Origin: a virus
Lineage: Duplodnaviria; Heunggongvirae; Uroviricota; Caudoviricetes
Strand: one strand, 5' to 3'
IMG/VR virus record: IMGVR_UViG_3300049216_000317
Location: 20,961-84,960 of that record
Length of the DNA stretch: 64,000 nt
Shown here: piece after piece, positions 2,394 through 24,861 of the stretch
Layout: every line of letters begins with the position of its first letter
Numbering within the stretch: the stretch's first letter is position 1
Made by a program: the position numbers and the translations under genes
Notes under the pieces: model-generated
What the model was told of the DNA's origin: nothing
The model's database searches: none
Seen by the model: only the letters and a program-made list of their open reading frames with translations

Positions 2394-2457
2394 GGTATTG
2401 TCCTCTAATTAAAAGATTGCCGGTAAAGCTGAAAAACAGACCTCAAATCGAATTAAA

Positions 2458-3390: not shown

Positions 3391-3401
3391 ATTAGGCTAT
3401 A

Positions 3402-3908
3402 TCAGGCTTTCGAGGGTCGGAACCCAATGTTGAGCATCATCGCCTTTTGGGCCATAGCATGCGCCAAAGGAACGACGTGCTCTGAATTCATGTTAATTTT
3501 TTGAGTCTGAAGGCAGTCGCCATTAATGACGCAAACCGCATCGGCGATCTTCATCCCTTGCAAAGCAAGAATGGCCTCGACCTTGTCGCCTGTTTGAACG
3601 GTATAGAGTTCATGGCCTGATTTTTTCAATTCCTCAGATAGACCATCGGTATGTTCGAGAACCAAAGACTCCGGGCCGAAAGCTAGACTTTTCATCATTG
3701 CTGGGCGGAATGTAGGGAACTGTTTTTCGACGTTATAGCGAACGATTGCAGGATGCGACCCGGCACTCAGCGCTTGATCCATGCTTTTGCCCATCGGACG
3801 GCCAGTGGCGATCCAAAAACCCCCTTTGGTCCTGACAAGTTTTACGGGTGATCCGTCAAGTTCGCCAGCATCTTGGACTTCCGCGATTTCAGATGGTTCG
3901 ATTCTCAT
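3402..3908 (-). CDS. hypothetical protein
   Basis: 168-aa ORF, 12-nt spacing from neighbour. Confidence 0.45.
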   Translation of the reverse strand: MRIEPSEIAEVQDAGELDGSPVKLVRTKGGFWIATGRPMGKSMDQALSAGSHPAIVRYNVEKQFPTFRPAMMKSLAFGPESLVLEHTDGLSEELKKSGHELYTVQTGDKVEAILALQGMKIADAVCVINGDCLQTQKINMNSEHVVPLAHAMAQKAMMLNIGFRPSKA

Positions 3909-6936: not shown

Positions 6937-7581
6937 TTAAAGGACCAATTTTGGAGTTTGGACGACTTGGATCATGTTAATGATCTTCAGTGCCAATTTC
7001 ACATCGCCAAGCATTTCAGCGAAACGACGCTGAGCTTTCAATGACAATGTTGCGCCACTCAGGATCGCAGCAAGGATTTCTTGCAGCGAAGACTCGATTG
7101 ACGACTTGTTAATTACGTTTTCTGTCAGAGCAACGCCCAAAATTTTAACGACAGAAGCCGAAGGAGCAGTGCGGTTGTAGATGCTCGCAATGAACTGATC
7201 GCCTGCGGATTTACTTCCCAGCGCTTCTTCAAGCTTCACCAATTCGGTTTTGCTCAAAACAACCGTCGTGAGCGGAATTGTAGCCGCTGGAGTGGTAAGA
7301 GAGAACTGGCCAGAGTCCGCAATTGCGTTACCATTTCCGGTGTCATCAGCCGCAATTACGAAGTAATAAGTCGTGCTCGGGCTAAGTCCGCTGAATGATT
7401 GGTTAGACAGGTTTGTCGCACCAGCAACTAAGTTGCCTGCTCCTGGAGTGAATCCAGAAGTTGTGCTCATATACCATTGATAAGTATAAGGTCCTGTTCC
7501 ACCTGAAGCGGCGGTTGATGAAAGAATCGCTGACGTGGACGTCGCGCTAACTTCCGAAATTGTTCCTGCTGAAAATGACAT
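6937..7581 (-). CDS. putative head decoration protein with N-terminal Ig-like/FN3-like domain
   Basis: N-term PYTYQWY..TTYYF pattern typical of Ig-like beta-sandwich domains; immediately downstream of capsid gene; RBS AGGAGA. Confidence 0.4.
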   Translation of the reverse strand: MSFSAGTISEVSATSTSAILSSTAASGGTGPYTYQWYMSTTSGFTPGAGNLVAGATNLSNQSFSGLSPSTTYYFVIAADDTGNGNAIADSGQFSLTTPAATIPLTTVVLSKTELVKLEEALGSKSAGDQFIASIYNRTAPSASVVKILGVALTENVINKSSIESSLQEILAAILSGATLSLKAQRRFAEMLGDVKLALKIINMIQVVQTPKLVL

Positions 7582-7612
7582 TTAGGTTTTCTCCTATGAT
7601 CTTAAGATTGGT

Positions 7613-7650
7613 TCAGAAATAAAAAAGGCCCGAAAGTTACCCTTCGAGCC
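7613..7650 (-). terminator. Putative intrinsic terminator after capsid gene (minus strand)
   Basis: Hairpin GGCCCGAAAG/CCTTCGAGCC (8 of 10 bp paired, loop TTAC) at 7627-7650, followed on the minus strand by TTTTTTATTT. Confidence 0.45.
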
Positions 7651-7677
7651 TTTGTAACTAGCTAAGCTAGTGGGCGA

Positions 7678-9063
7678 TTACAGTTGGCCAGTGATATTGT
7701 CCAACAGAACGTTTTTGCGTGGCTGATATGCAGCGAGTGACAAGAAGCGGAACGATGCTTCAGGCAAGCTGAGATCAGAGATCGCAAGTTTCAGTTTCGA
7801 GAACGGAGCCAATTGAGCGAAGCCCAAAGTGTTGGCTTGGATCAAGAAACCAGTCACTGAACCTGGAGCGCGGTTACCAAGATCGGTAAACACAACCGTT
7901 GAGTTCGGACCAGCGGCGACTTTACCGATGAATTTAGCTGAAGCAGCCGATCCACCAACCAACGAGCTATACACGTTGTAGTATTGTGCGCCAGAAACTT
8001 GAGTGATCGTCACGGTGACTTTGTCACCAGCAGCGGCCACAACCGCAGTTGCAGGAGCGGAAGCAACCGATTCACCCAACATTGACACTGCTGTCACGTA
8101 GTAAACGATTGAACCAGCTTGCAAGAGCGAACCAGCTGCGCCACCGTCAGCAACCGCAATGGTTGGACCAGATGGAGCGCCGATGCGTGAACGTGCAGGG
8201 CGAGTTTTGCCAGACAGGAAGCGTGAAGCTTCGAGAGCAACAACTGCTGCGGAAGTCCACTGAGTACGCAAGTGCGCGCCAGTAGCTTCTTGAGCAGAAC
8301 CTGCCAACATAATTCTTTCCTTAGCATGGGCAATTTTGTTATATGCAGAAAGGCTAATAGGATCAAGGATCAGCTTGTCAGCCGCTCCCATATTCATAGC
8401 GCTGCGCACCGAGCTATCTTCAATTACGGATTGAGTAAGAGTTCCGCCGACTGACAAAACTACAGTTTGGTCTGAGCCGTACTCCCCAAACATAAGATCT
8501 TGTGTATTCTGCTCAGCGTCTGATTGACGAACCTGAACATCCACACCGATCATGTTTGGAAGTTTAGCGATTGCGAGCGGGTTACCGTCGAAAACACCAC
8601 CGTTTGAAAAATCGGCCATTCCACGAAAGCTGTCGAATTCAATATCACCGCTTAATTTCATCGCAGCGTTTGCAGCTGAACGATCTTCGGCTTTAACACC
8701 GTCGAATGCGCCGATGAGGTTAGCGGCAACAGTCACGCGAGTAGTCGTGCTGTAGTATGCCATTGGCACAACTGCACGAACGTAGTTCGCATCGTTTTCC
8801 GTTCCGATGCCTCCTTCGAATTGGGCCGTTGCCCCGAAGATCCCGTAGTCAAGCTGACGGTTGAATTGGTGAAGTTGTGACTTCACATCTTTCACACTAA
8901 GCATTTTTTGGAGCTTAATATGGGAATCATCAAAGGTAACATTTTGCATTACCGGCGATAAGTCTTCCACTTGAAGTGCTGAGCCCTGATTGAGTTGGCC
9001 AGGCGCTGCCATTTGGCTGCCGGCTTCCAACGCTTTCATAAGGGACTGAAGTTGTTCGATCAT
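7678..9063 (-). CDS. putative major capsid protein (HK97-fold)
   Basis: 461-aa ORF placed scaffold -> this gene -> decoration protein; Ala/Gly/Ser-rich beta-type composition; flanked by terminator. No motif proof. Confidence 0.5.
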   Translation of the reverse strand: MIEQLQSLMKALEAGSQMAAPGQLNQGSALQVEDLSPVMQNVTFDDSHIKLQKMLSVKDVKSQLHQFNRQLDYGIFGATAQFEGGIGTENDANYVRAVVPMAYYSTTTRVTVAANLIGAFDGVKAEDRSAANAAMKLSGDIEFDSFRGMADFSNGGVFDGNPLAIAKLPNMIGVDVQVRQSDAEQNTQDLMFGEYGSDQTVVLSVGGTLTQSVIEDSSVRSAMNMGAADKLILDPISLSAYNKIAHAKERIMLAGSAQEATGAHLRTQWTSAAVVALEASRFLSGKTRPARSRIGAPSGPTIAVADGGAAGSLLQAGSIVYYVTAVSMLGESVASAPATAVVAAAGDKVTVTITQVSGAQYYNVYSSLVGGSAASAKFIGKVAAGPNSTVVFTDLGNRAPGSVTGFLIQANTLGFAQLAPFSKLKLAISDLSLPEASFRFLSLAAYQPRKNVLLDNITGQL

Positions 9064-9105
9064 TTTTTACTCTCCTTAAGAGTTTCTAATCATTTGTCCC
9101 AGCCC

Positions 9106-9900
9106 TTATTTGAGCAGGTGACTAATACTTTCGATGTTAGGGTTGCTTGAAAGATAGAAAGCGTTTATTGCATCTCTATCGCTTTTTGCCAGATCAGGAC
9201 GCGAAGCCGCTTTGTTAAGCTTCTCAGTGACTTCTTTCTTCGAAAGAGATTTCACATCATTAGCTTTAACTTCTTCAGATTTATTGATGACCTGAAGTTC
9301 GGTAACCGCTTTAGCTTTAGGAGCAGTCTTGCCGACCATTTTGGTCAACAGTTCTGTCACCATATCCAAAGATTTTTTGAGTTCGTCAGCTTTAGCTTTT
9401 TCAGCTTTAACTTCAGATTTCAAAAGAGCGATTTCTTCGTTGTTCACAGCAGGGATCTCAATGGCAGCCGCTTTTTCAGACTTTTCCATTGCGGGACCTT
9501 CTTTGTGAGCGTCGAGACATTTCTTGATGCAATCGTGGTGAGCTTTGAGTTCACCCTTCTTCATTGAAGAATACATTTCATGCATCTGTGCCATGTCTTC
9601 GTCGTCGTAATCATGGGCGTCTTCGTCGTGGCCTTCTTCATGCTTTTCACCTTCGGGTTTTTCGCCTTCTTCGTGTTCAGCATGTTTTTCGCCTTCGCCT
9701 TCAGACTTTTCGCCTTCCTCTTTTTCAGGAGCGGCTTCTTCTTTTGGCTCTTCGTGGCTTTTTTCTTTCTCGCCCTCTTCATCCTCTGGTTTTTCCTTTT
9801 TTGGAGGAAAATCCTCGGACTTCTTCAAGCTCAGATGAGCAGAAAACTCTGCTTCAACTGACTTGATGAGGTCTGAAAGTTCTGTTTCGGTGTATTGCAT
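9106..9900 (-). CDS. putative scaffolding protein (Glu/Lys-rich with tandem EGEK/HEEGEKPEGEK repeats)
   Basis: 264 aa, highly charged, low-complexity repeats, position immediately upstream of capsid gene. Confidence 0.45.
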   Translation of the reverse strand: MQYTETELSDLIKSVEAEFSAHLSLKKSEDFPPKKEKPEDEEGEKEKSHEEPKEEAAPEKEEGEKSEGEGEKHAEHEEGEKPEGEKHEEGHDEDAHDYDDEDMAQMHEMYSSMKKGELKAHHDCIKKCLDAHKEGPAMEKSEKAAAIEIPAVNNEEIALLKSEVKAEKAKADELKKSLDMVTELLTKMVGKTAPKAKAVTELQVINKSEEVKANDVKSLSKKEVTEKLNKAASRPDLAKSDRDAINAFYLSSNPNIESISHLLK

Positions 9901-9925
9901 GGTTATTTCCCCTCAATTCACCTAA

Positions 9926-10387
9926 TTAGTTAGATTTCGTTGGCCAGTAGAGATTCTCGATGTCGACAGTAATAGCCGCTGCGTTGAGTGAAGCTTCGGT
10001 AACAGCAGTGCCGTTAGCGATTTCTTTGAGTTGCATGCGAACGCCGCAAGCCATTGACTCGAAATCAACGATGAACAAATCAGAAGTAGCAACTTCAGGT
10101 TTGTTGGTAGCAGCCAATTCATAAGCCACTTCAAGCGTGTGCGGGGTGTATGCAGTGAGTGGGTTGCCGAAGACGTCCGGAGAAACCATCGGGACACCCT
10201 TCATGCGAATCAAACATACGGGTTGACCTTCAGCTTCGTTTCCACCGTGGGAAAGGAAAAGCATTGGCCATCCTTGTGCGTCGACTGCTTGGCGGATTGT
10301 ATTCAGACCAGCTTGGCCAGCGAAACGCTTGGACAATTTGTCGCCGAGGTCACGCATGGTAGCGTTAGCTTTTGCGAATGATGCCAT
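9926..10387 (-). CDS. hypothetical head-module protein
   Basis: 153-aa ORF, first gene of minus-strand head operon. Confidence 0.4.
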   Translation of the reverse strand: MASFAKANATMRDLGDKLSKRFAGQAGLNTIRQAVDAQGWPMLFLSHGGNEAEGQPVCLIRMKGVPMVSPDVFGNPLTAYTPHTLEVAYELAATNKPEVATSDLFIVDFESMACGVRMQLKEIANGTAVTEASLNAAAITVDIENLYWPTKSN

Positions 10388-10584: not shown

Positions 10585-11907
10585 ATGAATCAGGGAATGT
10601 ACATCGACGGAATCGCAAGTTCTCAAGCGATCGATACAGCGGGCGAAGTCGTCAGCATTCAAGGAATGGACATTTCTTCTTTGGTTGGTTCAGTTTTTAA
10701 CTGGGAACACAACTCAGATACGCCGATGCAAGTCGTTGGTAAGATCCTTTATGCCAAAAAGATCTTTGAAGAAGGCGATTGTGAGAATGATCGCCAGAAA
10801 AAGTGCTGGGCAAGCTGCCAAATGCCGTTTCTATATGTCATGGGCCAGCTTTTTGATGATCGTAATCCGGCAGCGAAAGAAGTCGCTGGCATGTTTATGT
10901 ACGATCAAAACGCTCCGGAACTTCCACCGACCTTAGGTTTTTCAATCGAGGGTTCAAAGATTTCCAAAGAAGGCATGATCGTTACTCGCTCGATTGCACG
11001 CAAGGTGACCATTACATGCGCGCCAGCCAACAAGACTTGCTTGGCAGGTGCTGTTCAGGACGAAGGTCAGGCGAGCCAAGATGATGACATTTCAAATATT
11101 TTTAAGACGGAGTACGTGGTTGATATGGTAAAGGCAGAGGATGCTGAAAAAATGTTGAGCAAGGCAGAAGACGAATACAAAAAAGGTAGCGTGCTTGGCC
11201 AGACGAAATCCGGCAAAGACGTTTATAGCCATGGTCCAGTTCACGCTTCTGGTTTTGATCAAAACGAACATGAAGAAGCTGCGCAAATGCACTTTAGTGC
11301 TGCCGGAAACCAAAAGGGCAATCCAAAGATGGCCCAGCATCACTACGACAAGTATAAGATGCATTCGCAAAAGATCAGTTCTATGAAGGACAAAGCTGAA
11401 CGCTTTAAAGCTTCAGCGCCAAAAACCATCTCAGAACAGCCTCCAAAGTATGGTAAGCTGCACGACCCTCGCATGAGCGGAACAGGCAAACCTCCTGGAC
11501 CAATCAAAAAAGCGATGACTGCTGATTCAGGCTTGGGCGCTCCGCAATCAAAGAACCAAGGCGCCGCACTCTGCAAACATGGCAAGAAGCCCAAAAAGTT
11601 AAAGAAATCTGATGACGTCATGGTTCCCGACGTAGGCCAAGGCCATAAAGACGATGCCCGCAATAAATCTGGTTCGGTAAAGATCGGCAAAAAGGTCATG
11701 CGCAAGTCTTCAATCTTGCAACGCGCCGAAGAAGCGTATAAAAATTGGACTAAGCGCGAAGAGTTTGAACGTTTTATGAAAAACCGCATGCCGAATCTCA
11801 CTAAGGGTGAAATTGCTGCATTCGGTCAAACCCTTGCGCTGAAAAAATCTTTGGACGCTGAAACGTTACTTGCGGATCTCGTTAATTACGAAATCAAAAA
11901 GTCCTAA
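10585..11907 (+). CDS. putative prohead protease (HK97 gp4 / S78-like N-domain) with Lys-rich C-terminal extension
   Basis: IDGIASSQAIDTAGEVV..NWEHN..LGFSIEGSK..VTITCAPAN resembles S78 motifs (His in FNHD-like box, Ser in GxSxG-like box); C-terminal ~250 aa Lys-rich. Confidence 0.45.
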   Translation: MNQGMYIDGIASSQAIDTAGEVVSIQGMDISSLVGSVFNWEHNSDTPMQVVGKILYAKKIFEEGDCENDRQKKCWASCQMPFLYVMGQLFDDRNPAAKEVAGMFMYDQNAPELPPTLGFSIEGSKISKEGMIVTRSIARKVTITCAPANKTCLAGAVQDEGQASQDDDISNIFKTEYVVDMVKAEDAEKMLSKAEDEYKKGSVLGQTKSGKDVYSHGPVHASGFDQNEHEEAAQMHFSAAGNQKGNPKMAQHHYDKYKMHSQKISSMKDKAERFKASAPKTISEQPPKYGKLHDPRMSGTGKPPGPIKKAMTADSGLGAPQSKNQGAALCKHGKKPKKLKKSDDVMVPDVGQGHKDDARNKSGSVKIGKKVMRKSSILQRAEEAYKNWTKREEFERFMKNRMPNLTKGEIAAFGQTLALKKSLDAETLLADLVNYEIKKS

Positions 11908-12064
11908 AACTTGGGAGGGCATCATGAATATTGACTCGATAAAAGAAGGACTAAAGGGCGTAGCCGAAAAAGCAGCTTCTAAAGTTCTAACCGAAAAGGC
12001 AATAGCGATGCTCTACACTCTCACCTGCCTTATTTGCCCTGACAGCGTCTGGTTCTCCGAAGAC

Positions 12065-12113
12065 TAGACTTTACCACAATTGTGGTATTTCAAAGCTAGC
12101 CCCTACCACAACT
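12065..12113 (+). promoter_or_regulatory. Two copies of palindromic operator-like site ACCACAA(T/C)TGTGGTATT upstream of RtcB gene
   Basis: 12065-12081 ACCACAATTGTGGTATT (perfect 14-bp palindrome) and 12097-12113 ACCACAACTGTGGTATT; centre-to-centre 32 bp; TTGCAA -35-like hexamer immediately follows. Confidence 0.5.
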
Positions 12114-12165
12114 GTGGTATTGCAAAAGCACAGTTTTCATTGCACTCTTTTGAAACGGGGTGACA

Positions 12166-13353
12166 ATGCAAACTATCTATGATCCTAACGAACAAAAAGT
12201 TCCAATCAAAATCTGGTCGCAATTGGACACTGTCGAATTGGGCGCCATCCAACAATTAAAGAACACGGCATCGCTTCCCTTCGTGTTCAAACACGTGGCG
12301 GCGATGCCCGACGTCCATTTTGGTATGGGCGCAACAGTAGGTTCTGTCGTTGCTACAAAAGGAGCGATTTGCCCTGCATGCGTTGGCGTCGACATTGGTT
12401 GCGGCATGATGGCCGTAAAGACCGATCTCGACCACCGCGTGGTCCAGGACAAAATCGCTGAAATTCGCCATTCAATCGAACGTTCAGTTCCGGTAGGCTT
12501 TGGCCAAAACAATCGTTACACGAAAGAAGTGGAAGATTATGCAGGTTGGAAAACATTCACCGAAGCAAACATGGGTTCAAAGAACCTTCTCAAAAAAGCT
12601 CAACATCAGCTTGGTTCTCTCGGGGGCGGAAATCATTTCATTGAGATTTGCTTGGACACCGAAAATTCCGTTTGGGTTATGCTGCATAGCGGTTCACGAG
12701 GTGTCGGAAACATCTTGGCCTCACAGCACATCGACAACGCAAAAGGATTGATGAAGAAATTCTTTGTCGAGTTACCTGATCCGGACTTGGCATTCCTTCC
12801 GATGCACACGAAAGAGTTCGATGATTACATTCGCGATCTGAATTGGGCGCAGGAATATGCCTTGGAGAATCGCGCGGAAATGATGCGACGAGTCCTAAAG
12901 GACCTTTCGTTCGCTGTTTATAAAGAGGACGGAAGAATCGCAAAATCGTATGAAGTGAATTGCCACCATAACTATATTGCGTGGGAACATCACTACGGAG
13001 AAAACGTAATGGTCACTCGTAAGGGCGCTGTTCGCGCTCGCAAGGGTGATTTGGGAATCATCCCCGGAAGTATGGGAGCTAAGTCTTTCATTGTTGAGGG
13101 ACTCGGGAATCCGAAGTCTTTCAATTCCTGTTCACATGGAGCCGGACGCAAGATGTCGCGTACTAAGGCTCGCAAAGCATTCACGCTGGAAGATCTGGCA
13201 GCCCAGACTCTTGGTGTTGAATGTCGAAAAGACGATGGCGTCCTAGATGAAATTCCGGCGGCTTATAAAGACATTGAAACTGTCATGGAGAACCAGAAAG
13301 ATTTAGTTCAAGTCGTCGCACAACTCAAACAGATTTTGTGCATAAAGGGATAA
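12166..13353 (+). CDS. rtcB: RtcB RNA 3'-phosphate/2',3'-cyclic phosphate ligase
   Basis: AAMPDVHFGMGATVG, GGGNHFIEI, HNY, RKGA, SMGAKS, SCSHGAGRK motifs; start taken at ATG 12166 (RBS GGGGTGA); ORF track starts at GTG 12160. Confidence 0.9.
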   Translation: MQTIYDPNEQKVPIKIWSQLDTVELGAIQQLKNTASLPFVFKHVAAMPDVHFGMGATVGSVVATKGAICPACVGVDIGCGMMAVKTDLDHRVVQDKIAEIRHSIERSVPVGFGQNNRYTKEVEDYAGWKTFTEANMGSKNLLKKAQHQLGSLGGGNHFIEICLDTENSVWVMLHSGSRGVGNILASQHIDNAKGLMKKFFVELPDPDLAFLPMHTKEFDDYIRDLNWAQEYALENRAEMMRRVLKDLSFAVYKEDGRIAKSYEVNCHHNYIAWEHHYGENVMVTRKGAVRARKGDLGIIPGSMGAKSFIVEGLGNPKSFNSCSHGAGRKMSRTKARKAFTLEDLAAQTLGVECRKDDGVLDEIPAAYKDIETVMENQKDLVQVVAQLKQILCIKG

Positions 13354-13355
13354 GC

Positions 13356-13625
13356 ATGCCAAAAAGAACATTTACCAAAGAATTTCTCACTGACGAACTA
13401 GACCTTCCTTTTTCAGCCATCGAAAAAAAGATCATTGATCAAGGCCGCTGGGAAACCCATTACGAAATCATTTTTGCTCACGAAGGCAAATATTACGCGA
13501 CGGGCTATTCGCGCGGATCTACTGAAATGCAGGATGAGGGACCAGATTTTGGTGGCGACGAAGTTGAATGCGATGAAGTTCATCAGGTCGAAAAAGTCGT
13601 TAAAGTTTGGGAAGAAGTAAAATAA
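13356..13625 (+). CDS. hypothetical acidic protein
   Basis: ORF track 13338..13625; ATG at 13356 just after RtcB stop preferred. Confidence 0.35.
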   Translation: MPKRTFTKEFLTDELDLPFSAIEKKIIDQGRWETHYEIIFAHEGKYYATGYSRGSTEMQDEGPDFGGDEVECDEVHQVEKVVKVWEEVK

Positions 13626-13650
13626 TTGACACTGCCTCTGTAGTCGCCGA

Positions 13651-13696
13651 CGCTATTAACGGGTTTAAAAGTAGTTAATAGCGGACGTGATATAAT
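13651..13696 (+). promoter_or_regulatory. Inverted repeat CGCTATTAAC..GTTAATAGCG followed by extended -10 TGATATAAT upstream of Prs-like gene
   Basis: 10-bp arms at 13651-13660 and 13674-13683; TG-n-TATAAT at 13688-13696; 29 nt upstream of GTG 13725. Confidence 0.5.
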
Positions 13697-13724
13697 CTTA
13701 ATGGTAGGCTCACTTGATTGATGT

Positions 13725-14576
13725 GTGGGTCTAAAAAGCGAACCATTTGGATATTATGGGGGCAAAATGATCTATCTTAACGGCGAAGCCGTACCTGTTA
13801 CGCATTTTCCAGACGGAACTTCTCAAGTCTGGAAGCTCGATGAAAAACACCTGAAAATTGGCGCTGATTCCCATGTGAAATGGGACTTTTCACACGAAGC
13901 CGAATTCTTTCACTTGGCTCAACTTCGTGACATTCTCGCGCTCTACCATCAAAATGTTTTTTTGACGATTTCTTACCTTCCATACGCTCGGCAAGATAAG
14001 CCCGTTTCCAACTCCGCCACTTTTGCTCTTAATACTTTTGGCAAAATACTGAGGGAAATGCGCTTTGGCGACATCGAAATCCTTGATCCTCATAGCCCTC
14101 TCATTATGCATATTGTCGGCGCGAATGACGTTTATCCAAAAGATGCTCTTCAGCGCGTCATCAAAATGACAGAATCATCCATCGTTTGCTACCCTGACAA
14201 GGGAGCACTGAACAAATATACCCAGGTCTATGACTGGCTCGGTGATAACTTCGCCTACGGCGAAAAAGTCCGCGACCAGGCGACTGGAAATATCACTCAC
14301 TACGCACTCTCCGCTAACGGCAAGGATTTGAAAGAACACAACGTCCTGATCGTCGATGATATTTGCGACGGCGGAGCTACATTCTTGATCTTGGCAAAAT
14401 CGCTTAGAGATGCGGGCGTTCCAGACGTAAACCTTTTCGTTACCCACGGCATCTTTTCAAAAGGCGTCAAAATTCTCAAGCAGGGCGGTATTAGCCGCGT
14501 CTTCACCTACGAAGGCGAGATCTTTCACGACTCGCGTGGTTGGCCCAATTCATTTTCAATAGAACGTTTTAACTGA
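13725..14576 (+). CDS. ribose-phosphate pyrophosphokinase family protein (Prs; alternatively ADP-ribose pyrophosphokinase Adps-like)
   Basis: FPDGTSQV, YLPYARQDK, NVLIVDDICDGGATF (PRPP-binding loop), THGIFS. Start alternatives GTG 13725 or ATG 13767 (RBS GGGGG). Confidence 0.8.
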   Translation: MGLKSEPFGYYGGKMIYLNGEAVPVTHFPDGTSQVWKLDEKHLKIGADSHVKWDFSHEAEFFHLAQLRDILALYHQNVFLTISYLPYARQDKPVSNSATFALNTFGKILREMRFGDIEILDPHSPLIMHIVGANDVYPKDALQRVIKMTESSIVCYPDKGALNKYTQVYDWLGDNFAYGEKVRDQATGNITHYALSANGKDLKEHNVLIVDDICDGGATFLILAKSLRDAGVPDVNLFVTHGIFSKGVKILKQGGISRVFTYEGEIFHDSRGWPNSFSIERFN

Positions 14577-14622
14577 GACTAAGGATATTTGGTCTCAATA
14601 ACCCATGGATAGGAGATTACCC

Positions 14623-16098
14623 ATGAAGAGCTTTCTGAACCCTATGTTACTTTGCGACTTTTATAAAGTTGCCCACCGTGAAATGTATCCGCAAAAAACG
14701 GAAATCGTGTATTCGACGTGGACACCCCGCGCAAGTCGTCTTAAAGGGGTCGACAAGGTCGTTGCCTTTGGATTTCAAGCATTCATCAAGACATACTTGA
14801 TTGAATTCTTTAATGAGAACTTCTTCTCACAAGACATCAATGAAATCACACGAAAGTATAAGCGCTTAATTAAGCATACTCTCGGCGTTCAAGATGCCCA
14901 GACATCGCACATCGAAGCCTTGCATGCTTTGGGGTATTTCCCCCTTTCAATCAAAGCTTTGCCTGAAGGTACGCTTACCCCACTTAAGGTGCCAATGTTT
15001 ACCATCGAAAATACGCATCCAGACTTTTTCTGGGTGACCAATTACATCGAAAGCTTAGCTTCGGCTGAATTGTGGCAGCCTTCGACTGCGGCAACTATTG
15101 CTTTGGAATACAAAAAGATCTTTTTGGACGCTGCAAAACGTACTGGTGGCGACCCGACTTTTGTTCCTTTTCAAGGACACGACTTTTCGTTCCGTGGAAT
15201 GGAAGGTCTCATGGGCGCTCTTTCGAGCGGCATGGGGCACTTAACTTCATTCGTGGGAACCGACACGATCCCTGCAATTGAAGCGATTGAACATTTGTAC
15301 TGCGGCAACATCGAAAAAGAACTGATCGGAACCTCTATCCCAGCCTCAGAGCATAGCATTCAATGTGCTTATGGGGATGACATGAAATATTTCGAAAACC
15401 TAATTACGCGCGTTCATCCAAACGGCTTTGTGTCGATTGTTTCCGATGGTTATGACTTTTGGGGAGTTCTGACAGACGTTTTGCCAGCACTAAAGGACAA
15501 GATCATGGCTCGCGATGGCAAAGTTGTGATCCGTCCTGACTCGGGAGATCCAGTTCTTATCGTATGCGGTGACCCTAATGCACCGGAAGGTTCTCCGGAA
15601 TATAAAGGTGCCATCGAGGTCCTTTGGGATATTTTTGGTGGAACCAAGACTTCTGAGGGCTTAGATCTATTGGATTCGCACATTGGCCTTATCTATGGCG
15701 ATGCTATTACTTTAGCTCGTGCAACTCAGATAACCGACATTTTGGAGCAAAAAGGTTTTGCTTCGACGAATGTAGTCTTCGGAATCGGATCGTATACTTA
15801 CCAGTACAATACTCGCGACACTTTTGGATTTGCTCTGAAATCGACTCTTTGCAAAATCGACGGAACTGAAAAACAGATCTTTAAAGATCCAAAAACTGAC
15901 GACGGAACAAAGAAATCATTGAAAGGTCGTGTTGCGGTCTTGAAAGATGCTTATGGAAATCTCATTGCGCGAGATCGTTTTGGTCTTGCCGACGAAATTC
16001 CAGGAAATCAACTTGTGGAAGTTTTCCGCGATGGTAAGCTTTTAGTCGAGCAAACGTTCGAAGACATTCGCAAGCGCATCCAGCAGGATTTAAAGTGA
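14623..16098 (+). CDS. nicotinamide phosphoribosyltransferase family (NadV/NAMPT; alternatively Namat-like)
   Basis: N-term NPMLLCDFYKVAHRE and overall length/architecture typical of NAMPT; RBS AGGAGA 6 nt upstream of ATG 14623 (track starts at 14605). Confidence 0.85.
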   Translation: MKSFLNPMLLCDFYKVAHREMYPQKTEIVYSTWTPRASRLKGVDKVVAFGFQAFIKTYLIEFFNENFFSQDINEITRKYKRLIKHTLGVQDAQTSHIEALHALGYFPLSIKALPEGTLTPLKVPMFTIENTHPDFFWVTNYIESLASAELWQPSTAATIALEYKKIFLDAAKRTGGDPTFVPFQGHDFSFRGMEGLMGALSSGMGHLTSFVGTDTIPAIEAIEHLYCGNIEKELIGTSIPASEHSIQCAYGDDMKYFENLITRVHPNGFVSIVSDGYDFWGVLTDVLPALKDKIMARDGKVVIRPDSGDPVLIVCGDPNAPEGSPEYKGAIEVLWDIFGGTKTSEGLDLLDSHIGLIYGDAITLARATQITDILEQKGFASTNVVFGIGSYTYQYNTRDTFGFALKSTLCKIDGTEKQIFKDPKTDDGTKKSLKGRVAVLKDAYGNLIARDRFGLADEIPGNQLVEVFRDGKLLVEQTFEDIRKRIQQDLK

Positions 16099-16556
16099 GC
16101 AAAGTAACGGTCATCAAGAAAAGTCTTTTTGATGCCCCACCGGGCTCCCTCATTGTTCACGCGTGTAATACGCGGGGCATGTGGGGCTCCGGTATAGCCA
16201 GGGAATTCGCTTTGCGTTTTCCCTGGGCTCACCGCGTTTACAGTCGTCATTGTCATCAAGCGAAAGAAGCCGATGGCACAGCGCCTTCTCTTTTGGGTAC
16301 ATCGCTGATTATTACTGAAGGTGAGCACATGGTCGGCTGCCTTTTTACTTCTGCGAGCTATGGTTCTGATGTCGACGCTCCAGAAAAAATTCTGGATGCC
16401 ACTCGACGAGCCATTGCGGATCTGATTCGTTTGAACGACGCAAAGTGCCCAATTGCACTTTGTAAAATCAATTCGGGACTCTTTAAGGTTCCTTGGGATA
16501 AAACCATGGAAATCCTAAATGAATTTAACCAGGAGTTTACAGTTTATGAGCCTTAG
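16095..16556 (+). CDS. macro domain protein (ADP-ribose binding/processing)
   Basis: SLIVHACNTRGMWGSGIAREF (cf. IVNAAN..GGGV..AI) and IALCKINSGLFKVP (cf. IAFPxISTGxxGxP); GTGA overlap with NAMPT stop. Confidence 0.6.
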   Translation: MSKVTVIKKSLFDAPPGSLIVHACNTRGMWGSGIAREFALRFPWAHRVYSRHCHQAKEADGTAPSLLGTSLIITEGEHMVGCLFTSASYGSDVDAPEKILDATRRAIADLIRLNDAKCPIALCKINSGLFKVPWDKTMEILNEFNQEFTVYEP

Positions 16557-17685
16557 CCTTCCCACCCTTTATAAAAAAGCTTCTACCGGCAAAATTCAGC
16601 AATGGAATATCCATGTTGAACCTGGGGCGATGCAAACGGCATGTATTGTGACTCAACACGGGCAAGTTGGCGGAAAAATCCAAGAGACCAAAGACTGGAT
16701 TGAAGAAGGTAAAAATCTTGGCAAAGCCAATGAGACTTCGGAGCTTCAGCAGGCAGAAGCCGAAGCTAAAGCCAAATGGGAAAAGAAAAAGAAGTCTGGT
16801 TACGTTGAGACTTTAGACGGTGCAGAGGCCGACGAAACTGATGATTTGATCGAAGGTGGCATCGTGCCGATGCTAGCGCAGTCGTTTTCAAAACACGCGC
16901 AGAAGATCAAATATCCTTGCTACGCGCAGCCGAAACTGGATGGCATTCGTTGCATTGCCATTTTAAAAGACGGCGAATGCACTCTTTGGTCGCGCACGCG
17001 AAAGCTCATCACTGGCGTTCCGCATATCGCGCGAGAAGTTGAGAAAATGTTCAAAGGTTTGGACATCGTTTTGGATGGTGAGCTTTATAATCATGAACTC
17101 AAGAAAGACTTCGAACAGATTGTCTCTTTTGTGCGACAAGAAGAGCCTCAGCCCGGATACGACATCGTCGAATACCACATTTACGATGTAGCTAACGGAG
17201 ATATGTTTCACCAGCGGTGGGAGAATTTCATTCGCCGTCTTCCTAAAGATCGTATTCTTTCGCGCAAAATCCATTTCGTTGAGACGGTTTTGATCGACGA
17301 TGAGCCATTTGTTGCCGAACTCTTCGAAAAGTTTACTGCTAGCGGATATGAAGGTTTGATGCTTCGTAACTACGATAGCAAATACGTTAACAAGCGCTCA
17401 TACGATCTTCAAAAGGTAAAAGAGTTTGAAGACGCTGAATTCAAGATCGTCGGCATTAAAGAAGGGCGAGGTAAGCTTGCGGGCCACGCGATTCACGTTT
17501 GCGAAGACGAAAAGGGTGAACAGTTCGACGTGAAAATGAAGGGCGAAACTGCGGTACTCAAAAAACACTTCGATGATCATTCTCTTTGGAAAGGCAAAAA
17601 AATGACGGTCCAGTTCCAGGGCCTAACGGGAGCCAACCAAGTTCCGCGCTTTCCTGTTGGAAAGGCAGTCCGTGATTACGAATAA
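16546..17685 (+). CDS. ATP-dependent DNA (or RNA/DNA) ligase
   Basis: Motif I KLDGIRC (adenylation Lys), DGELY, EGLMLRNYDSKY, downstream KVKEFEDAEFKIVG OB-like region; RBS AGGAG before ATG 16546 (track 16519). Confidence 0.75.
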   Translation: MSLSLPTLYKKASTGKIQQWNIHVEPGAMQTACIVTQHGQVGGKIQETKDWIEEGKNLGKANETSELQQAEAEAKAKWEKKKKSGYVETLDGAEADETDDLIEGGIVPMLAQSFSKHAQKIKYPCYAQPKLDGIRCIAILKDGECTLWSRTRKLITGVPHIAREVEKMFKGLDIVLDGELYNHELKKDFEQIVSFVRQEEPQPGYDIVEYHIYDVANGDMFHQRWENFIRRLPKDRILSRKIHFVETVLIDDEPFVAELFEKFTASGYEGLMLRNYDSKYVNKRSYDLQKVKEFEDAEFKIVGIKEGRGKLAGHAIHVCEDEKGEQFDVKMKGETAVLKKHFDDHSLWKGKKMTVQFQGLTGANQVPRFPVGKAVRDYE

Positions 17686-17968
17686 AATTATCGGTCTCTT
17701 TTTAATGTTTGGCGTGTTCGCGGGCTGCTCTCGAAGCCAAAATGAAATTGGCCGAATGGAAGACCGTTACGAGGCAGTTTGCGTTCAGCGCGAAACCAGC
17801 TATGGCTATGGGGTTACTTCCCACGGACATGTCGTGTCCACGCGTACACGAAACTGTGTACTGCATGCATGCGAGCGCAGTACGGTATTGATTGGCAAAT
17901 ATTGGTGGAACGACACGAAACTTAGCAGTTCCCGAGTTTCTATGAGCGAGTGCGAAAGGTATTTATGA
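17672..17968 (+). CDS. putative small lipoprotein (6 Cys)
   Basis: MITNKIIGLFLMFGVFAGC lipoprotein-type signal peptide with lipobox FAGC; RBS GGAAAGG 6 nt upstream of GTG 17672; overlaps ligase 3' end. Confidence 0.4.
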   Translation: MITNKIIGLFLMFGVFAGCSRSQNEIGRMEDRYEAVCVQRETSYGYGVTSHGHVVSTRTRNCVLHACERSTVLIGKYWWNDTKLSSSRVSMSECERYL

Positions 17969-18733
17969 TTCGCCGCGCTGAGCTTTGAGGGCGTCATAGC
18001 CCTTTTCAACATAAGAGACGAACCCTTTTCCGTTGAAACCATAGCCGCGACCCAAATAGGTCAACTGGCAGCGACAGTGCGGGTGTCGATTCACCATTGA
18101 TGGTGCGTCGTCTCCGCGCTTCCCGTAGCCTGCTTTAAGCTCCGACAGATACCATAGGCGAGGTATGGTGCCGTCAGGCATCATATGCAGGCGCATGCAG
18201 TCATTGCAGGTCTTGCCGTCACGCACGATCACAAAAAACACGATAGGATCTTTGTCGTTTACGGATGCAGCAACACGACTAATGTCCATTGCAACACCAA
18301 GGTTGCGCGCTTTTGTCGCTTCAGACATCGTAATTGCGCCGACGTGGCTTTTTGCCTTTTCCATCTCTTTGCCGATGACTCGCTGAACGTCGACCATACT
18401 GACGCCAACGCCTTTTGCCTTAGCTTCTTTGATCATGGCATCCAGTTGATCAGTGACATTGGATTTGGTCTTATTTTTGAGGGATTCAACATAGCCATGT
18501 GCCGTGTCTAGCATACCCTTAAGAACATCGGATTCGACTTCGTTCAAAGGTTGGTTGTTCATAGCCGCAACGAAAAGATTTGCAAGGCTGAACTGGTTCT
18601 TGGTCGTAAAGATCAGAGCCTTTTTGTCTTTAAGCGCTGGGATTGACCCGAGCAGCTTAAAGGCCATTTTGTCGAATAGAGAGTCGACGATGCCGCCGAT
18701 GTTCTCTTTGCCCTTAGAAGAAATGCCGATCAT
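17963..18733 (-). CDS. head morphogenesis protein (Mu gpF / SPP1 gp7 family)
   Basis: C-terminal CNDCMRLH..RHPHCRCQL motif characteristic of MuF-like minor head proteins; located downstream of portal. Confidence 0.55.
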   Translation of the reverse strand: MIGISSKGKENIGGIVDSLFDKMAFKLLGSIPALKDKKALIFTTKNQFSLANLFVAAMNNQPLNEVESDVLKGMLDTAHGYVESLKNKTKSNVTDQLDAMIKEAKAKGVGVSMVDVQRVIGKEMEKAKSHVGAITMSEATKARNLGVAMDISRVAASVNDKDPIVFFVIVRDGKTCNDCMRLHMMPDGTIPRLWYLSELKAGYGKRGDDAPSMVNRHPHCRCQLTYLGRGYGFNGKGFVSYVEKGYDALKAQRGES

Positions 18734-19707: not shown

Positions 19708-21522
19708 TTAATCCTCATCTTCGTCGAGCATGTCTTCAACTTCGAGTTTCAAGAAGTCGAAAGCAAACGGCTTAGGAGCGTAATAAGCTTGCAAAGCAGC
19801 CGGGTTGGTTTGAGCAAGAAGCTGCATGTTTTGGAGTGCGAACGGATCACGCTTGTACTTCAGAACCGGATCAAGGCTTGACGCTGGCGATCCAAAGAAG
19901 CGTGTGCGGATCTCGCCTACATCGACGTACTTATCCAAAATCAACTGGAAGCGCTCAGAGAATGGGAAGCGTCCGCCAACAACTTCGCCGACAGTTTCCT
20001 TGCCCACTTCGAGCAACATTTCGTCGTAAGTCATGTGAAGAGCGGAGTCTTGCTGCAAGCGAGTAGACTCTTGCTCTTTAGATTGGGCGTCTAGACCAGC
20101 AAACGTAATCGTACAGATCTTCGCAAGCAACGGGTCCATGATCGGAAACAAACGTTGGTTAAAGAAAGTCTGGAATGAAAGAACCAACGGGCGAAGACCT
20201 GTGTCTCGCGAAGCCGTCAATTTGAATTCGTTTGAGGATTCAGAAAGCGTTTGAGAGTTTGTCCCTTTGCTTAAATGACCATAGCCAGGCAGTTCGTCAG
20301 GCGACATATTGAATGCCGAGAGAATGTTGCGCGCCATTTGGTCATAAAGGTACTGGAAAGCACCGTCATGTAGACCTTCGTCATTGAACGGAACCCACTG
20401 AACTTTATCGTCTTGCCCTACACCAAAAATCGGCGTGCGGAATGAGTTCGAAACGCTATTGATTGAAGCGTTAAACTGAGCCTTGATAGTGTTAACCACT
20501 GCCTCGTCGACCTCATCCGATGCAATTACTAGCATCCCTTTCGAGGCACGACCGTTTTGGAAATAGAGCTTTTCATAAGCATCAATTGAGATATGCGTAG
20601 TGACTGCGTTGACTACAGTATCTAGCGGAGAAACTGGGTAGCCATTATGTTCAACGTCGGTAGACTCGTAAAGGTTATAGACGAGCATTTCTTCGTGCGT
20701 GAACGCTTGGCGCGGAGTCTCATCAATAACCTGGACCCATGCGTACTTATCTTCGGCCACTTTGGACAGATCAATGTCCATTTTGATGCCGGTGATAGAT
20801 TCAAGCATTTTAACCGCTTGTTTACGAAGAGAATCTCCCTCGTGTTCATTGCGGCGAACGGCACGACGAATCGTTGCCGTATCGACTGGACGGAATCTAT
20901 GAAAAGGGAATGAGCCATCAGCGTTTTTCTTCTCGCGATCATAGATAACTTCCGTCGCAAAACGTCCAAAAGTAAGGCCGTTATTGGTCTGGATATTTAA
21001 AAACGATGCAAGGGTCAGCTGATCTTGGGTTTCTAGGCCATCCGTAGAACCGCAATTGAGCAGTTGTTGCTCAAAGCGTTTCATGCGGACTTTAACTTTC
21101 ATGTATTGATTCGGAGTCAGAATTTTTAGGATTTCAGGCTTGATCGCGATTTCGATTCCGAGATCAAAGCGGTCTTTACGCAAATGGCCAAAAAGTGCCA
21201 TCATGTTTCCGCGCGCACGCAAAATCGCTGCAACCAAATGGTCGGTCAGACGAATTTGTTTTAAGAGCGAATCAGGAATCAGCTGCTTTTTGGTCTTATA
21301 AAAACCAACGTAGTTATCGGAGTGGTTTGGTTGCTCAATAAACGCTAAGCGCGGAGCATTTTTGTCGGCACTTCCCGTTGCTTGATCAACAACCCATTGA
21401 AGGGCACCGGCTTGAGTCGTGAGATCCTTTTTTTCGGATTTCTCTAGAGCTTCAATGTGGGAGTCAGCAATATCAAATACTGCCTTTGGCGACTCCTTTT
21501 TCTTCTTTGGCGTTCTGCTCAT
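19708..21522 (-). CDS. putative portal protein
   Basis: 604-aa ORF downstream of terminase large subunit, acidic C-terminus (DMLDEDED); size/position typical of portal; no motif proof. Confidence 0.55.
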   Translation of the reverse strand: MSRTPKKKKESPKAVFDIADSHIEALEKSEKKDLTTQAGALQWVVDQATGSADKNAPRLAFIEQPNHSDNYVGFYKTKKQLIPDSLLKQIRLTDHLVAAILRARGNMMALFGHLRKDRFDLGIEIAIKPEILKILTPNQYMKVKVRMKRFEQQLLNCGSTDGLETQDQLTLASFLNIQTNNGLTFGRFATEVIYDREKKNADGSFPFHRFRPVDTATIRRAVRRNEHEGDSLRKQAVKMLESITGIKMDIDLSKVAEDKYAWVQVIDETPRQAFTHEEMLVYNLYESTDVEHNGYPVSPLDTVVNAVTTHISIDAYEKLYFQNGRASKGMLVIASDEVDEAVVNTIKAQFNASINSVSNSFRTPIFGVGQDDKVQWVPFNDEGLHDGAFQYLYDQMARNILSAFNMSPDELPGYGHLSKGTNSQTLSESSNEFKLTASRDTGLRPLVLSFQTFFNQRLFPIMDPLLAKICTITFAGLDAQSKEQESTRLQQDSALHMTYDEMLLEVGKETVGEVVGGRFPFSERFQLILDKYVDVGEIRTRFFGSPASSLDPVLKYKRDPFALQNMQLLAQTNPAALQAYYAPKPFAFDFLKLEVEDMLDEDED

Positions 21523-22512: not shown

Positions 22513-24387
22513 TCAGAAATCGAAGAAAAAGCTGCCCTTTTTGCCCTTAGTCCCCGTGAATTGGCCTCCCGGCTGTATGTGACGATTGATTTCATCGCGC
22601 ATTTGCTCCTGATGGAGTTCAGAACCCATATTTGGGGTGATTTGTCGGGGGGTTCGTTCGTCGACACCGGACTGGACCGCTTTCAAACGAAACGGACCTT
22701 TTATGGGAAACAGGTTTTGGCCCAAATAGCGCAAAGCATCGCAAATATCGGCGATTCCAGGCTCATCGTCTGGCTGTCCGGTAGGATTGCCCTGTCCGTC
22801 CAGTTTGAACTTATGCTTTTGCATGGCTGTTAAAACCTTCATCGTATTTTCGGTTTTAATGATCTTGAAAAGGCGCTTGCCGGATGCGGTAAGGATTTTT
22901 GAGCGAATCGATTCGATTCCTGCGGAGACATCCCTTGTAAAGACGGGCGCGCGCATAAAGTTTTTGTTGAAGGATTTAAGGAAAGATGGCTCTGCTTGAT
23001 CGCAGAACCATTTGTTCAATGGATATTTGTCGCGAAATTTAATTGCAACGTCCAAGACGTCCGAAAATTCCATTCCAGTAGAAGTCCAACAGTCAACAAT
23101 CCAAACTTCACCGTTGGGCATCATAGCTGCAATAATGATAACGCTGTCGTGCGTGAATCCCCAGTCGACGCCGGCATACATGGGAATTCCAAGCCTTACC
23201 AGTTCGTTAAAAAGAGCTTGTTCCGTCGGGTAATTGACCTCGATTCCAAGCAAGCCTTCCAAAGCACGTTTAATTGAAATGTAGTTTGTGGATTCGGCAT
23301 CAAGATTTGAATTCAGGCGACCATACACGAGACCTTGAGAGCCGGGCTTCCAGCAAAGAAGTTGAGACTCTGCAATCTCAGGGCTGTTTTCTCTAAACTT
23401 CTGAATGACGGTCTTGATTGGCTTATAGAAACCATCTTTTGCGCTGGAAGGAAGTTGGCTCAGGCGCATTCGGCAAATGGGCAAAAGCGAGCACTTTACG
23501 CAACCTGCATGAACGTTTTCAAGCTTATCGAATTTGACCTGTTCTGGAAGCGTTAGGAAATCGTACTTCTCTTGATTTAGCTGCTGAAGCGGAAGAGATT
23601 TTGCCACGTACATTGTGGTTTTTTCTTCCAATGGCAAATGACGTTCCGGCCCACAGACTTCTGTGACATCAAGAATATTCCAACGAAGAAGTTTGTAGTT
23701 CATTTCGTCGGCTTTTGTGATCATTTCGGCCATGAGACCGAATGAGTATTTTCGAGTCGAAAGGAAAAGAGTGAAGGGATGAATTTTACGAGAATATCCG
23801 ACGATGTTTTTGCCCTCATTCAAGGCAGATCGATCGGCAAGATCAAGCTCGTCAACAACGAGAATATTCGCATGCAACGAGTTCATACCTTTAGGCGTAC
23901 AAATAACGACTTTAATAAAAGGCTTTTTCCCGGAAGGCGTTAGAAACTCGAAAGTACGTTTGTTTTGCGAAGAATTTGTCCAACCAGCGGCTGCCAAAAG
24001 AGGTTCGAGCTTAAAAAAATAGCCTTGGATGTATTTCAAACAAACTGCGGACTGAGATTCGACGGCAGCTGCGTGAGCAATTTCGAGTTCGAAATGCAGC
24101 ATCAAAATGATCTCTAGGATCGCGCAAGATACGGTCTTGAGGCATTCACGTGCTGAAAGCCAAATGGCTCCTGGCGTGTCTCCCTTATTGTGCAAGAATG
24201 ACTCATATACTTGCCAAATAGCATCGACAGGGTTTGACGTACTCTCACGATCGGTGATCGTATTCGGGTACTCCATATCCAAGAATGCTTTGATCCAATC
24301 CTTAAGTTCGTCTGGCGAACTCAAGTGTTTGAACATCAATTCAGCGTAAAATTTCTTTTCTGGTTCAGATAAAGTCTTAAAGTTCAT
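22513..24387 (-). CDS. terminase large subunit
   Basis: ATPase-like SARECLKT (deviant Walker A), ILVVDELDLAD (Walker B); C-terminal nuclease-like region IIIAAMMPNGEVWIVD; start ambiguous (ATG 24387 or TTG 24456). Confidence 0.65.
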   Translation of the reverse strand: MNFKTLSEPEKKFYAELMFKHLSSPDELKDWIKAFLDMEYPNTITDRESTSNPVDAIWQVYESFLHNKGDTPGAIWLSARECLKTVSCAILEIILMLHFELEIAHAAAVESQSAVCLKYIQGYFFKLEPLLAAAGWTNSSQNKRTFEFLTPSGKKPFIKVVICTPKGMNSLHANILVVDELDLADRSALNEGKNIVGYSRKIHPFTLFLSTRKYSFGLMAEMITKADEMNYKLLRWNILDVTEVCGPERHLPLEEKTTMYVAKSLPLQQLNQEKYDFLTLPEQVKFDKLENVHAGCVKCSLLPICRMRLSQLPSSAKDGFYKPIKTVIQKFRENSPEIAESQLLCWKPGSQGLVYGRLNSNLDAESTNYISIKRALEGLLGIEVNYPTEQALFNELVRLGIPMYAGVDWGFTHDSVIIIAAMMPNGEVWIVDCWTSTGMEFSDVLDVAIKFRDKYPLNKWFCDQAEPSFLKSFNKNFMRAPVFTRDVSAGIESIRSKILTASGKRLFKIIKTENTMKVLTAMQKHKFKLDGQGNPTGQPDDEPGIADICDALRYLGQNLFPIKGPFRLKAVQSGVDERTPRQITPNMGSELHQEQMRDEINRHIQPGGQFTGTKGKKGSFFFDF

Positions 24388-24444
24388 ATAGTTAAGATTG
24401 CCGCATAATTTGACATTTAAGGCGCAATGCGCTACATTTGACCG

Positions 24445-24861
24445 ATGAGTGACCAAGATACGTTCACAAAGACGTGTCAGGCGTTGGCCATTGAATTAAA
24501 AATCAACTTTTATGTGGGGCGTCCTGGTAGGTGTTTCCGTAATGTCATGGCCTTTGCTTATGCGAATCCCTCATGGACAATCGTTCATGGATTGGCAAAA
24601 CAGTGCAAAGACGGCCCGCTCTTATGTCATGCTTGGTGTGAAACCAGGGTTAACATAGGCGATCGTAAACATTGGGTGGTTCATTGCCCAAGCCAGCATC
24701 CTGAATCTCCGAATTTTGGAGGAGTCCAGCTTCATCCTTTTTTCTACAAAGCATGTCGCGTTGCTTTCACCCGCAGATACACTTTCGAAGAAGCTTACAA
24801 GCAGTTGGAAAAGACCAACAATTATGGTCCCTGGGACCCAAACTTTTTAAGTTACTGCTAA
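24445..24861 (+). CDS. hypothetical Cys/His-rich protein
   Basis: 138-aa ORF; divergent from terminase. Confidence 0.4.
   Translation: MSDQDTFTKTCQALAIELKINFYVGRPGRCFRNVMAFAYANPSWTIVHGLAKQCKDGPLLCHAWCETRVNIGDRKHWVVHCPSQHPESPNFGGVQLHPFFYKACRVAFTRRYTFEEAYKQLEKTNNYGPWDPNFLSYC

Follow-up and report, generated by a model that had tools for sequence, protein, structure and literature searches.

A probable NARP1-AP operon in a large environmental phage distantly related to Mx1

The stretch of phage DNA analysed here, hereafter the window, comprises 64,000 nucleotides (nt) of a Caudoviricetes genome (IMG/VR record IMGVR_UViG_3300049216_000317, positions 20,961 to 84,960) and carries three consecutive plus-strand genes at 13725-16556 that encode a Prs-like protein, a NAMPT-like protein and a macro domain protein. 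This triad is most probably a NARP1-AP operon (NAD+ reconstitution with an associated phosphatase), that is, a phage counter-defence system in which the NARP1 pair, Adps and Namat, is joined by a macro domain phosphatase. The three proteins belong to the enzyme families of that pathway and keep its catalytic and specificity residues, their genes are laid out as an operon, and their linkage recurs in other phages. The triad is a divergent new example of a three-gene concept that has already been published.

NARP1-AP was described in a preprint by Osterman et al. of 28 January 2026 (bioRxiv 10.64898/2026.01.28.702374), in which the aRES defence cleaves NAD+ to nicotinamide and ADP-ribose-1''-phosphate (ADPR-1''P), a product that is unusable by NARP1. 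According to the same preprint, 15% of NARP1 phages have a macro domain gene no more than two genes from the pair, and the closest characterised homologue of the encoded protein (Adpp) is Poa1p. The Adps-Adpp-Namat operon of phage Gary defeats aRES, and loss of any one gene abolishes the effect; the substitution H24A served to inactivate Adpp in the test against aRES, and purified Adpp turns ADPR-1P into ADP-ribose (ADPR). The operational definition of NARP1-AP given there calls for a PF01661, PF14519 or PF20016 gene no further than two genes from NARP1, and in the window a PF01661 gene lies immediately downstream of Namat. No further paper mentioning NARP1-AP was found in the literature searched.

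From these parallels we infer the chemistry of the window enzymes, their role in vivo and the presence of a host defence that produces ADPR-1''P. The macro protein would strip the 1''-phosphate from ADPR-1''P, which aRES and other RES-type NAD+ phosphorylases produce, to give ADP-ribose; Adps would then use ATP to pyrophosphorylate ADP-ribose to ADPR-PP, and Namat would join nicotinamide to ADPR-PP to form NAD+ directly. Ordinary NADases (TIR, SIR2, SEFIR) release ADP-ribose directly, and the Adps and Namat steps would suffice there. The original prediction for this DNA, made from the sequence, had proposed that the macro protein might supply ADP-ribose from ADPR-1''P, which fits the finding of Poa1p as the closest protein by sequence and fold and has experimental precedent. 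It had also held that described NARP systems contain no macro protein and that the triad would be an undescribed three-component variant; this is out of date because the triad falls within the published definition of NARP1-AP, which in Gary already unites Adps, macro protein and Namat.

The three predicted genes are present and co-oriented on the plus strand. Adps and Namat had been called adjacent and overlapping: they are adjacent, but a gap of 28 nt separates them if Namat starts at the ATG at 14605, or 46 nt if it starts at an alternative, better-placed ATG at 14623 that has GGAG upstream. The GTGA overlap proposed for the macro gene is real, with its GTG start overlapping the TGA stop of Namat at 16095-16098. 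The true start of the Adps-like gene is probably ATG 13767 rather than GTG 13725, which would give a protein of 269 amino acids (aa), because homologues start at an equivalent MIYLNG and GGGGG lies just upstream.

Adps and Namat signatures

The NAMPT-like gene (14605-16098, plus strand) encodes a 497-aa protein with NAPRTase and NAMPT_N domains that matches phrog_448 and NCBIfam PRK09198 (527 bits). Neither phrog_448 nor the NAPRTase Pfam model separates Namat from Nampt, because the Nampt of Myxococcus phage Mx1 matches them equally well, and these matches were not used as evidence. A published discriminator is the Namat SCH motif, GSX-phi-X-phi-X-phi-TRD with aromatic X residues, which packs against the ADPR-PP adenine by stacking and is missing from Nampt; the SCL loop of Namat contributes an adenine-stacking Arg, Lys or Tyr (PMC12774641, 2026). 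The window protein reads GSYTYQYNTRD, an exact fit to the motif, and the tested Namats read GSFTYQYNTRD (Bacillus phage SPbetaL1) and GSFTYQYVTRD (Gary). Nampt-type comparators, from Mx1 and from the metagenomic loci L039, L043 and L044 described below, read GG(A/L)LLQ..(N/S)RD in this region (GGALLQ.VNRD in Mx1, L039 and L043). The best match in the PDB is SPbetaL1 Namat (9W5W/9W5X) with an expect value (E) of 4e-188 and 629 bits, compared to about 204 bits for true Nampts. When the NAD+-contact residues of SPbetaL1 Namat are mapped on the window protein, 20/20 are kept, with the conservative aromatic replacement of F392 by Y397 as the sole change. The clamp residues are R45 (R40, in the SCL), Y397, Y401 (Y396) and D405 (D400), and the catalytic His is H250 within ASEHS, the counterpart of the mutated H243 of Gary. 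On these sequence characters, assignment of the NAMPT-like protein to Namat is very secure.

The Prs-like protein (13725-14576, plus strand; 283 aa as annotated) has Pribosyltran / Pribosyl_synth domains and belongs to phrog_619. Within the Prs family, Adps forms a clade found in phages, of which 97% adjoin Namat, an adjacency that is rare for Prs; Adps of SPbetaL1 pyrophosphorylates ADP-ribose, and the Prs-type reaction yielded no product (Osterman et al. 2024). phrog_619 is common to the window protein (9e-60) and to the tested Adps of SPbetaL1 (2e-73) and Gary (2e-82). Against TIGR01251, with a cut-off of 113 bits, the window protein scores 84 bits and the tested Adps 106 and 100, compared to 423 for E. 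coli Prs. The NCBIfam Prs equivalog models give the window protein 25-79 bits against cut-offs of 296-536; E. coli Prs passes such models at 423-533 bits, and the window protein and tested Adps fail them. A housekeeping Prs was rejected on this basis, with a best score of 84.3 bits and every Prs cut-off failed. In BLASTP searches, the window protein scores 100 bits with Gary Adps, 84 with SPbetaL1 Adps and 43.5 with E. coli Prs; a comparison of the tested Adps with each other gives 84-87 bits.

The alignment points the same way. The N-terminal segment of Prs is missing from the window protein and from every Namat-linked homologue, DPH(S/N) replaces the DLHA of Prs, and DGG(A/R/M)T replaces DTGGT, the loop with which Prs binds the phosphate of ribose-5-phosphate. 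K181 of the window protein aligns with Gary Adps K192, which was mutated (K192A) in the 2026 preprint, and the gene is followed immediately by a Namat with the full signature. Together, gene context, model scores and shared sequence characters make assignment of the Prs-like protein to Adps secure. The predicted identification of a NARP1 pair thus holds, given the Namat motif and contacts, shared membership of phrog_619 and failure of the Prs models; its accompanying reservation, that Adps and Prs or Namat and NAMPT cannot be told apart from sequence alone, gives way to published discriminators that the window proteins pass.

The macro protein and its linkage to NARP1

The macro gene (16095-16556, plus strand) encodes a 153-aa protein that matches Macro PF01661 (E 1.4e-12) and phrog_335, annotated 'phosphatase' (8e-17). 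It is predicted to be a Poa1p-type ADPR-1''P phosphatase. Among PDB sequences it is closest to yeast Poa1p, an ADP-ribose 1''-phosphate phosphatase, with a match over the full length (E 7e-19). An AlphaFold2 model built with 34 homologues has a mean predicted local distance difference test score of 95; Foldseek ranks Poa1p first for this model, with a template modelling (TM) score of 0.89-0.91 and E ~1e-16, and DarG and TARG1 next (TM 0.70-0.78, E ~1e-9). Macro residue H22 aligns with H23 of Poa1p and H24 of Gary Adpp, F130 aligns with F152 of Poa1p, and neither H22 nor F130 varies among the 34 aligned sequences; H23 and F152 are both mutated in deposited Poa1p structures, and roles of Poa1p residues were taken from the titles of mutant PDB entries. 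ADPR-1''P is the substrate suggested by homology and by the Gary precedent. A DarG/TARG1-type glycohydrolase was considered and rejected. The Lys of the G-K-G loop is catalytic in those enzymes; the DarG loop MGKGVA (T. aquaticus) aligns with WGSGIA in the macro protein, where the Lys position is Ser32, the score with the DarG model is 19 bits (cut-off 250), and the fold match is weaker than that to Poa1p.

The window macro protein and Gary Adpp appear from their sequences to be homologous members of different sub-lineages. In pairwise comparison they share 26% identity (E 0.028), hhalign comparison with Gary-type Adpps gives 98.5% probability at 18% profile identity, and phrog_335 is common to both (1e-49 for Gary Adpp). 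Gary-type Adpp homologues occur in 2,705 phage records, whereas window-type homologues occur in four, which belong to three phages (Mx1, Sophrita and Astolliot), and in none of these three cultured phages does NARP1 lie next to the macro gene. The window-type lineage is common in metagenomes, where 592 proteins match at E up to 1e-5 and many of these are encoded on 155-177 kilobase (kb) contigs. A protein of the fungus Serendipita sp. (P0095), annotated as an ADP-ribose 1''-phosphate phosphatase, is 48% identical to the phage macro protein and is closer to it than yeast Poa1p (30%) and nearly all macro proteins of cultured phages; this similarity may reflect phage-fungus gene exchange or contamination.

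Gary NARP1-AP is among the closest characterised systems. Like the window, Gary has one member of each of the three enzyme families in a single co-oriented operon; in both, Namat bears the clamp motif and the macro protein has Poa1p as its closest characterised relative, and all residues mutated in Gary are kept in the window (Gary/window: Adps K192/K181, Namat H243/H250, Adpp H24/H22). They differ in gene order, which is Adps-Namat-macro in the window and Adps-macro-Namat in Gary, and identities are low (33% for Adps, 41% for Namat and 26% for the macro protein); the window phage is Mx1-like and its system is known from sequence alone, whereas Gary is a Vibrio demerecvirus. The NARP1 system of SPbetaL1 also has two adjacent genes in the same order, an Adps in the same PHROG and a Namat that is 58% identical to that of the window with all NAD+-contact positions kept, but its Adps is only 28% identical and no macro gene lies beside the pair. 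Poa1p of S. cerevisiae (PDB 6LFQ to 6LFU) resembles the window macro protein at TM ~0.9 and 30% identity, with H23 and F152 kept and the motifs HxCN, WGxGIA and INSG(I/L)FxVPW in common; it differs in being cellular and tied to tRNA-splicing by-products, and in an insertion of ~25 residues that is missing from the window protein. NARP2 of Vibrio phage KVP40 (Nampt and a bifunctional Nmnat) likewise restores NAD+ during infection with a Nampt-superfamily enzyme, but it uses phosphoribosyl pyrophosphate (PRPP) and needs Nmnat, in contrast to the ADPR-PP clamp and Adps partner of the window enzyme.

Linkage of the window-type macro lineage to NARP1 was assessed in metagenomic phages. A search for related loci with the single macro protein gave nothing, and an alignment of homologues was used as query instead; 48 IMG/VR loci (designated by L numbers) were collected and reduced to 41 distinct macro genes by removal of duplicates. 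Adps-family and Namat-family genes lie on the same strand within 8 kb of the macro gene in 16/41 cases, and the full Namat motif is readable in 13 of these 16 loci. Gene order varies: Adps-Namat-macro with a 4-nt overlap occurs in the window, L004/L012, L031 and L042, the Gary-like order Adps-macro-Namat in L030, L045 and L052, and Adps-Namat-x-NADAR-macro in L006, L011 and L014, with spacings of 1-7 kb in further loci. NARP1 is present in 4.3% of phage genomes (Osterman et al. 2024), which, set against 16/41, indicates a large enrichment near the macro gene, although the loci are not phylogenetically independent and the databases differ. The same triad with the same order and the same 4-nt overlap recurs at 52-64% protein identity within unrelated flanks (L004/L005/L012), which argues that it is not a chance juxtaposition.

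The related loci contain further gene combinations. In several relatives a NADAR gene (L006 5517-6029; also in L011, L014-L016 and L039) separates Namat from the macro gene and may be an additional ADP-ribose-processing accessory of NARP1. In other loci, the macro gene is directly upstream of Nampt-type enzymes (L039 8982-10355, L043 9000-10403, L044/L047/L048 8713-10152) whose SCH region reads GGALLQQVNRD or GGLLLQSHSRD, and in L044 an Adps-like gene is on the opposite side of the macro gene; the link between macro protein and NAD salvage therefore extends beyond signature-bearing Namat. A third arrangement, in L009/L010 (3671-7810) and also in L023 and L040, runs RNA ligase, two small open reading frames (ORFs), a metallophosphoesterase gene that overlaps the macro start, macro, DNA ligase and portal; it points to a NARP1-independent role of the macro protein, which may be in nucleic-acid repair. 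In L007, a 212-kb contig, the macro gene is near a NAD-dependent DNA ligase of LigA type and a 941-aa GATase/QueC protein that is split by an intein with a LAGLIDADG domain (1988-3844, 7137-9962). No homologues of the NMNAT, NADAR, metallophosphoesterase or RNA ligase of these related loci were found within the 64-kb window.

Competing explanations

Several observations weigh against a NARP1-AP assignment. The distinction between Adps and Prs is built on hidden Markov model scores and on one cellular Prs, that of E. coli. About 60% of the macro-lineage genes are without NARP1 within 8 kb, and macro-DNA ligase-portal synteny is kept in Mx1-like relatives that have no NARP1 in that range (L009/L010, L019, L022, L023, L033, L040); retention of the macro gene in such phages implies a NARP1-independent role there, and its place beside the ligase in the window may be partly ancestral synteny. 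Poa1p S30, a mutation target of crystallographers, corresponds to Met29 in the macro protein and to Val in most relatives. The substrate of the macro protein could also differ, because it belongs to a sub-lineage other than that of the single tested Adpp, to which it is 26% identical. In one alternative explanation, which we consider unlikely, though with some weight, Adps and Namat form NARP1 and the macro protein is functionally separate, as part of a nucleic-acid repair set with the neighbouring RtcB and DNA ligase. The macro protein might then remove ADP-ribose from toxin-modified DNA/RNA ends or bases, or dispose of ADP-ribose that arises as a by-product when RNA is repaired, and its adjacency to Namat would mark a site where NARP1 happened to insert. 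The NARP1-less synteny agrees with this, as do the overlap of the L009 macro gene with a metallophosphoesterase gene that has an RNA ligase gene upstream of it, the NAD-dependent DNA ligase near the macro gene of L007, the NADAR gene beside the macro gene in L006, L011 and L014 (the NADAR family de-ADP-ribosylates DNA), and the rank of DarG and TARG1 as next-best folds. Poa1p is nevertheless well ahead of both in fold comparison, and the GKG Lys of DarG is replaced by Ser32. The overlap of the macro start with the Namat stop in the window and in L004/L012 implies co-translation, and the linkage with NARP1 recurs in varied orders that include a macro gene between Adps and Namat as in Gary. Moreover, no Tpt1-type enzyme, which makes ADPR phosphates in RNA repair, was seen; RtcB ligation needs no such enzyme.

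A macro protein that feeds NARP1 from a substrate other than ADPR-1''P is very unlikely. Candidate substrates would be O-acetyl-ADP-ribose, ADPR-2'-phosphate, ADPR-1'',2''-cyclic phosphate and cyclic ADPR (cADPR) immune signals. The difference in sub-lineage from the tested Adpp leaves room for such an activity, and RyDEP, an unrelated enzyme whose products from cADPR signals feed the synthesis of NAD+ by phages, indicates that several feeder chemistries exist. Yet the nearest characterised protein was named and crystallised as an ADPR-1''P phosphatase, and the His common to Adpp and Poa1p is invariant across the macro lineage. RyDEP, moreover, is not a macro protein, and its preprint reported that no earlier enzyme was known to degrade 2'cADPR or 3'cADPR. 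Classical salvage through PRPP, in which a true Prs would make PRPP, a NadV-type Nampt would make nicotinamide mononucleotide, and an NMNAT of the host or encoded far away in the phage genome would complete NAD+ in NARP2-like fashion, had been offered as the alternative in the original prediction. Generic annotations (Pfam, NCBIfam PRK09198, phrog_448) blur Nampt and Namat, Namat keeps some PRPP activity in vitro, and the window covers 64 kb of a genome of ~165 kb. Salvage of this type is effectively excluded, however, because the Prs-like protein fails every Prs cut-off and groups with tested Adps, the Namat clamp motif and residues are present where Nampt-type motifs are absent, and no Nmnat homologue is found in the window: tblastn with Mx1 NMNAT gave nothing in these 64 kb, with ~100 kb of the genome outside.

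A further possibility, speculative and quite unlikely, is that the Poa1p-proper macro lineage was recruited to NARP1 independently of Gary-type Adpp, by convergence, and possibly has a second job in processing ADP-ribose adducts or phosphorylated ADPR from nucleic-acid damage or repair, with the ADP-ribose passed to NARP1. If this is true, nucleic-acid repair would be linked to NAD+ reconstitution.

Genomic setting and implications

The NARP1-AP candidate lies among head genes (major head protein at 7678-9063, a protease-like protein at 10585-11907, portal at 19708-21522 and terminase at 22513-24456) in a tightly packed plus-strand island at 12160-17685. Upstream are an RtcB RNA ligase (12160-13353, plus strand; PF01139, 3e-129, phrog_1075) and a 95-aa ORF without assigned function (13338-13625, plus strand; phrog_6343), and downstream is an ATP-dependent DNA ligase (16519-17685, plus strand; PF01068, PF14743, phrog_114 at 2e-72). 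The ligase probably starts at ATG 16546, which is preceded by AGGAG, and would overlap the 3' end of the macro gene by 11 nt. The island looks like a repair and counter-defence cassette; RtcB and the DNA ligase are given here as context to the pathway. Just one intergenic gap in the island is sizeable, the 141 nt before the operon; it contains TGATATAAT (13688-13696, plus strand), a possible extended -10 element that was read by eye and precedes the probable Adps start by 71 nt. It is a weak promoter candidate. A two-hexamer promoter and terminator scan of 11800-18100 gave fewer matches than shuffled sequence and no operon boundaries, and a tRNA scan found no tRNA.

The phage has no close cultured relative, as a megablast search of 12000-18000 against 50,697 phage records gave no match. 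Its closest relative at the protein level is Myxococcus phage Mx1, with a portal protein 46% identical, and a 164.5-kb metagenomic contig encodes a macro protein (P0001) that is 99% identical to that of the window. Mx1 itself (L001; 259-3561, 8001-8498) has a Nampt-type enzyme and NMNAT, a NARP2-like pair, ~5-8 kb from its macro gene and no Adps there, so that related phages vary in the NAD+ pathway that they carry. A minus-strand ORF at 1-~990 runs off the window start; it begins MLYITIDGDSIGSKVGR, has a GGDE motif and ends in a long acidic tail. Over 186 aa it shares 32% identity with a protein of 549 aa, annotated as PF18182 mCpol (minimal CRISPR polymerase domain), that is encoded 2.3 kb downstream of the triad in L004/L005. 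It may be a phage nucleotide cyclase-like gene.

The novelty of the window triad is modest and consists of a NARP1-coupled macro protein from a sub-lineage other than that of the tested Adpp, with linkage in 16/41 metagenomic macro genes and in several gene orders. If the assignment is correct, it extends the range of NARP1-AP from cultured Vibrio and Pseudomonas phages to large (~165 kb) environmental phages distantly related to Mx1. The loci also show a second macro sub-lineage, nearer to fungal Poa1p, that is repeatedly coupled to NARP1. In the window, sequence alone suffices to tell Namat from Nampt with the published motif and Adps from Prs with the Prs cut-offs, and the window macro protein is of practical value as a divergent Adpp candidate for biochemistry. 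These findings support the ideas that NAD+ destruction that yields ADPR-1''P may be a widespread selective pressure on phages and that the feeder enzymes of NARP1 may be modular.

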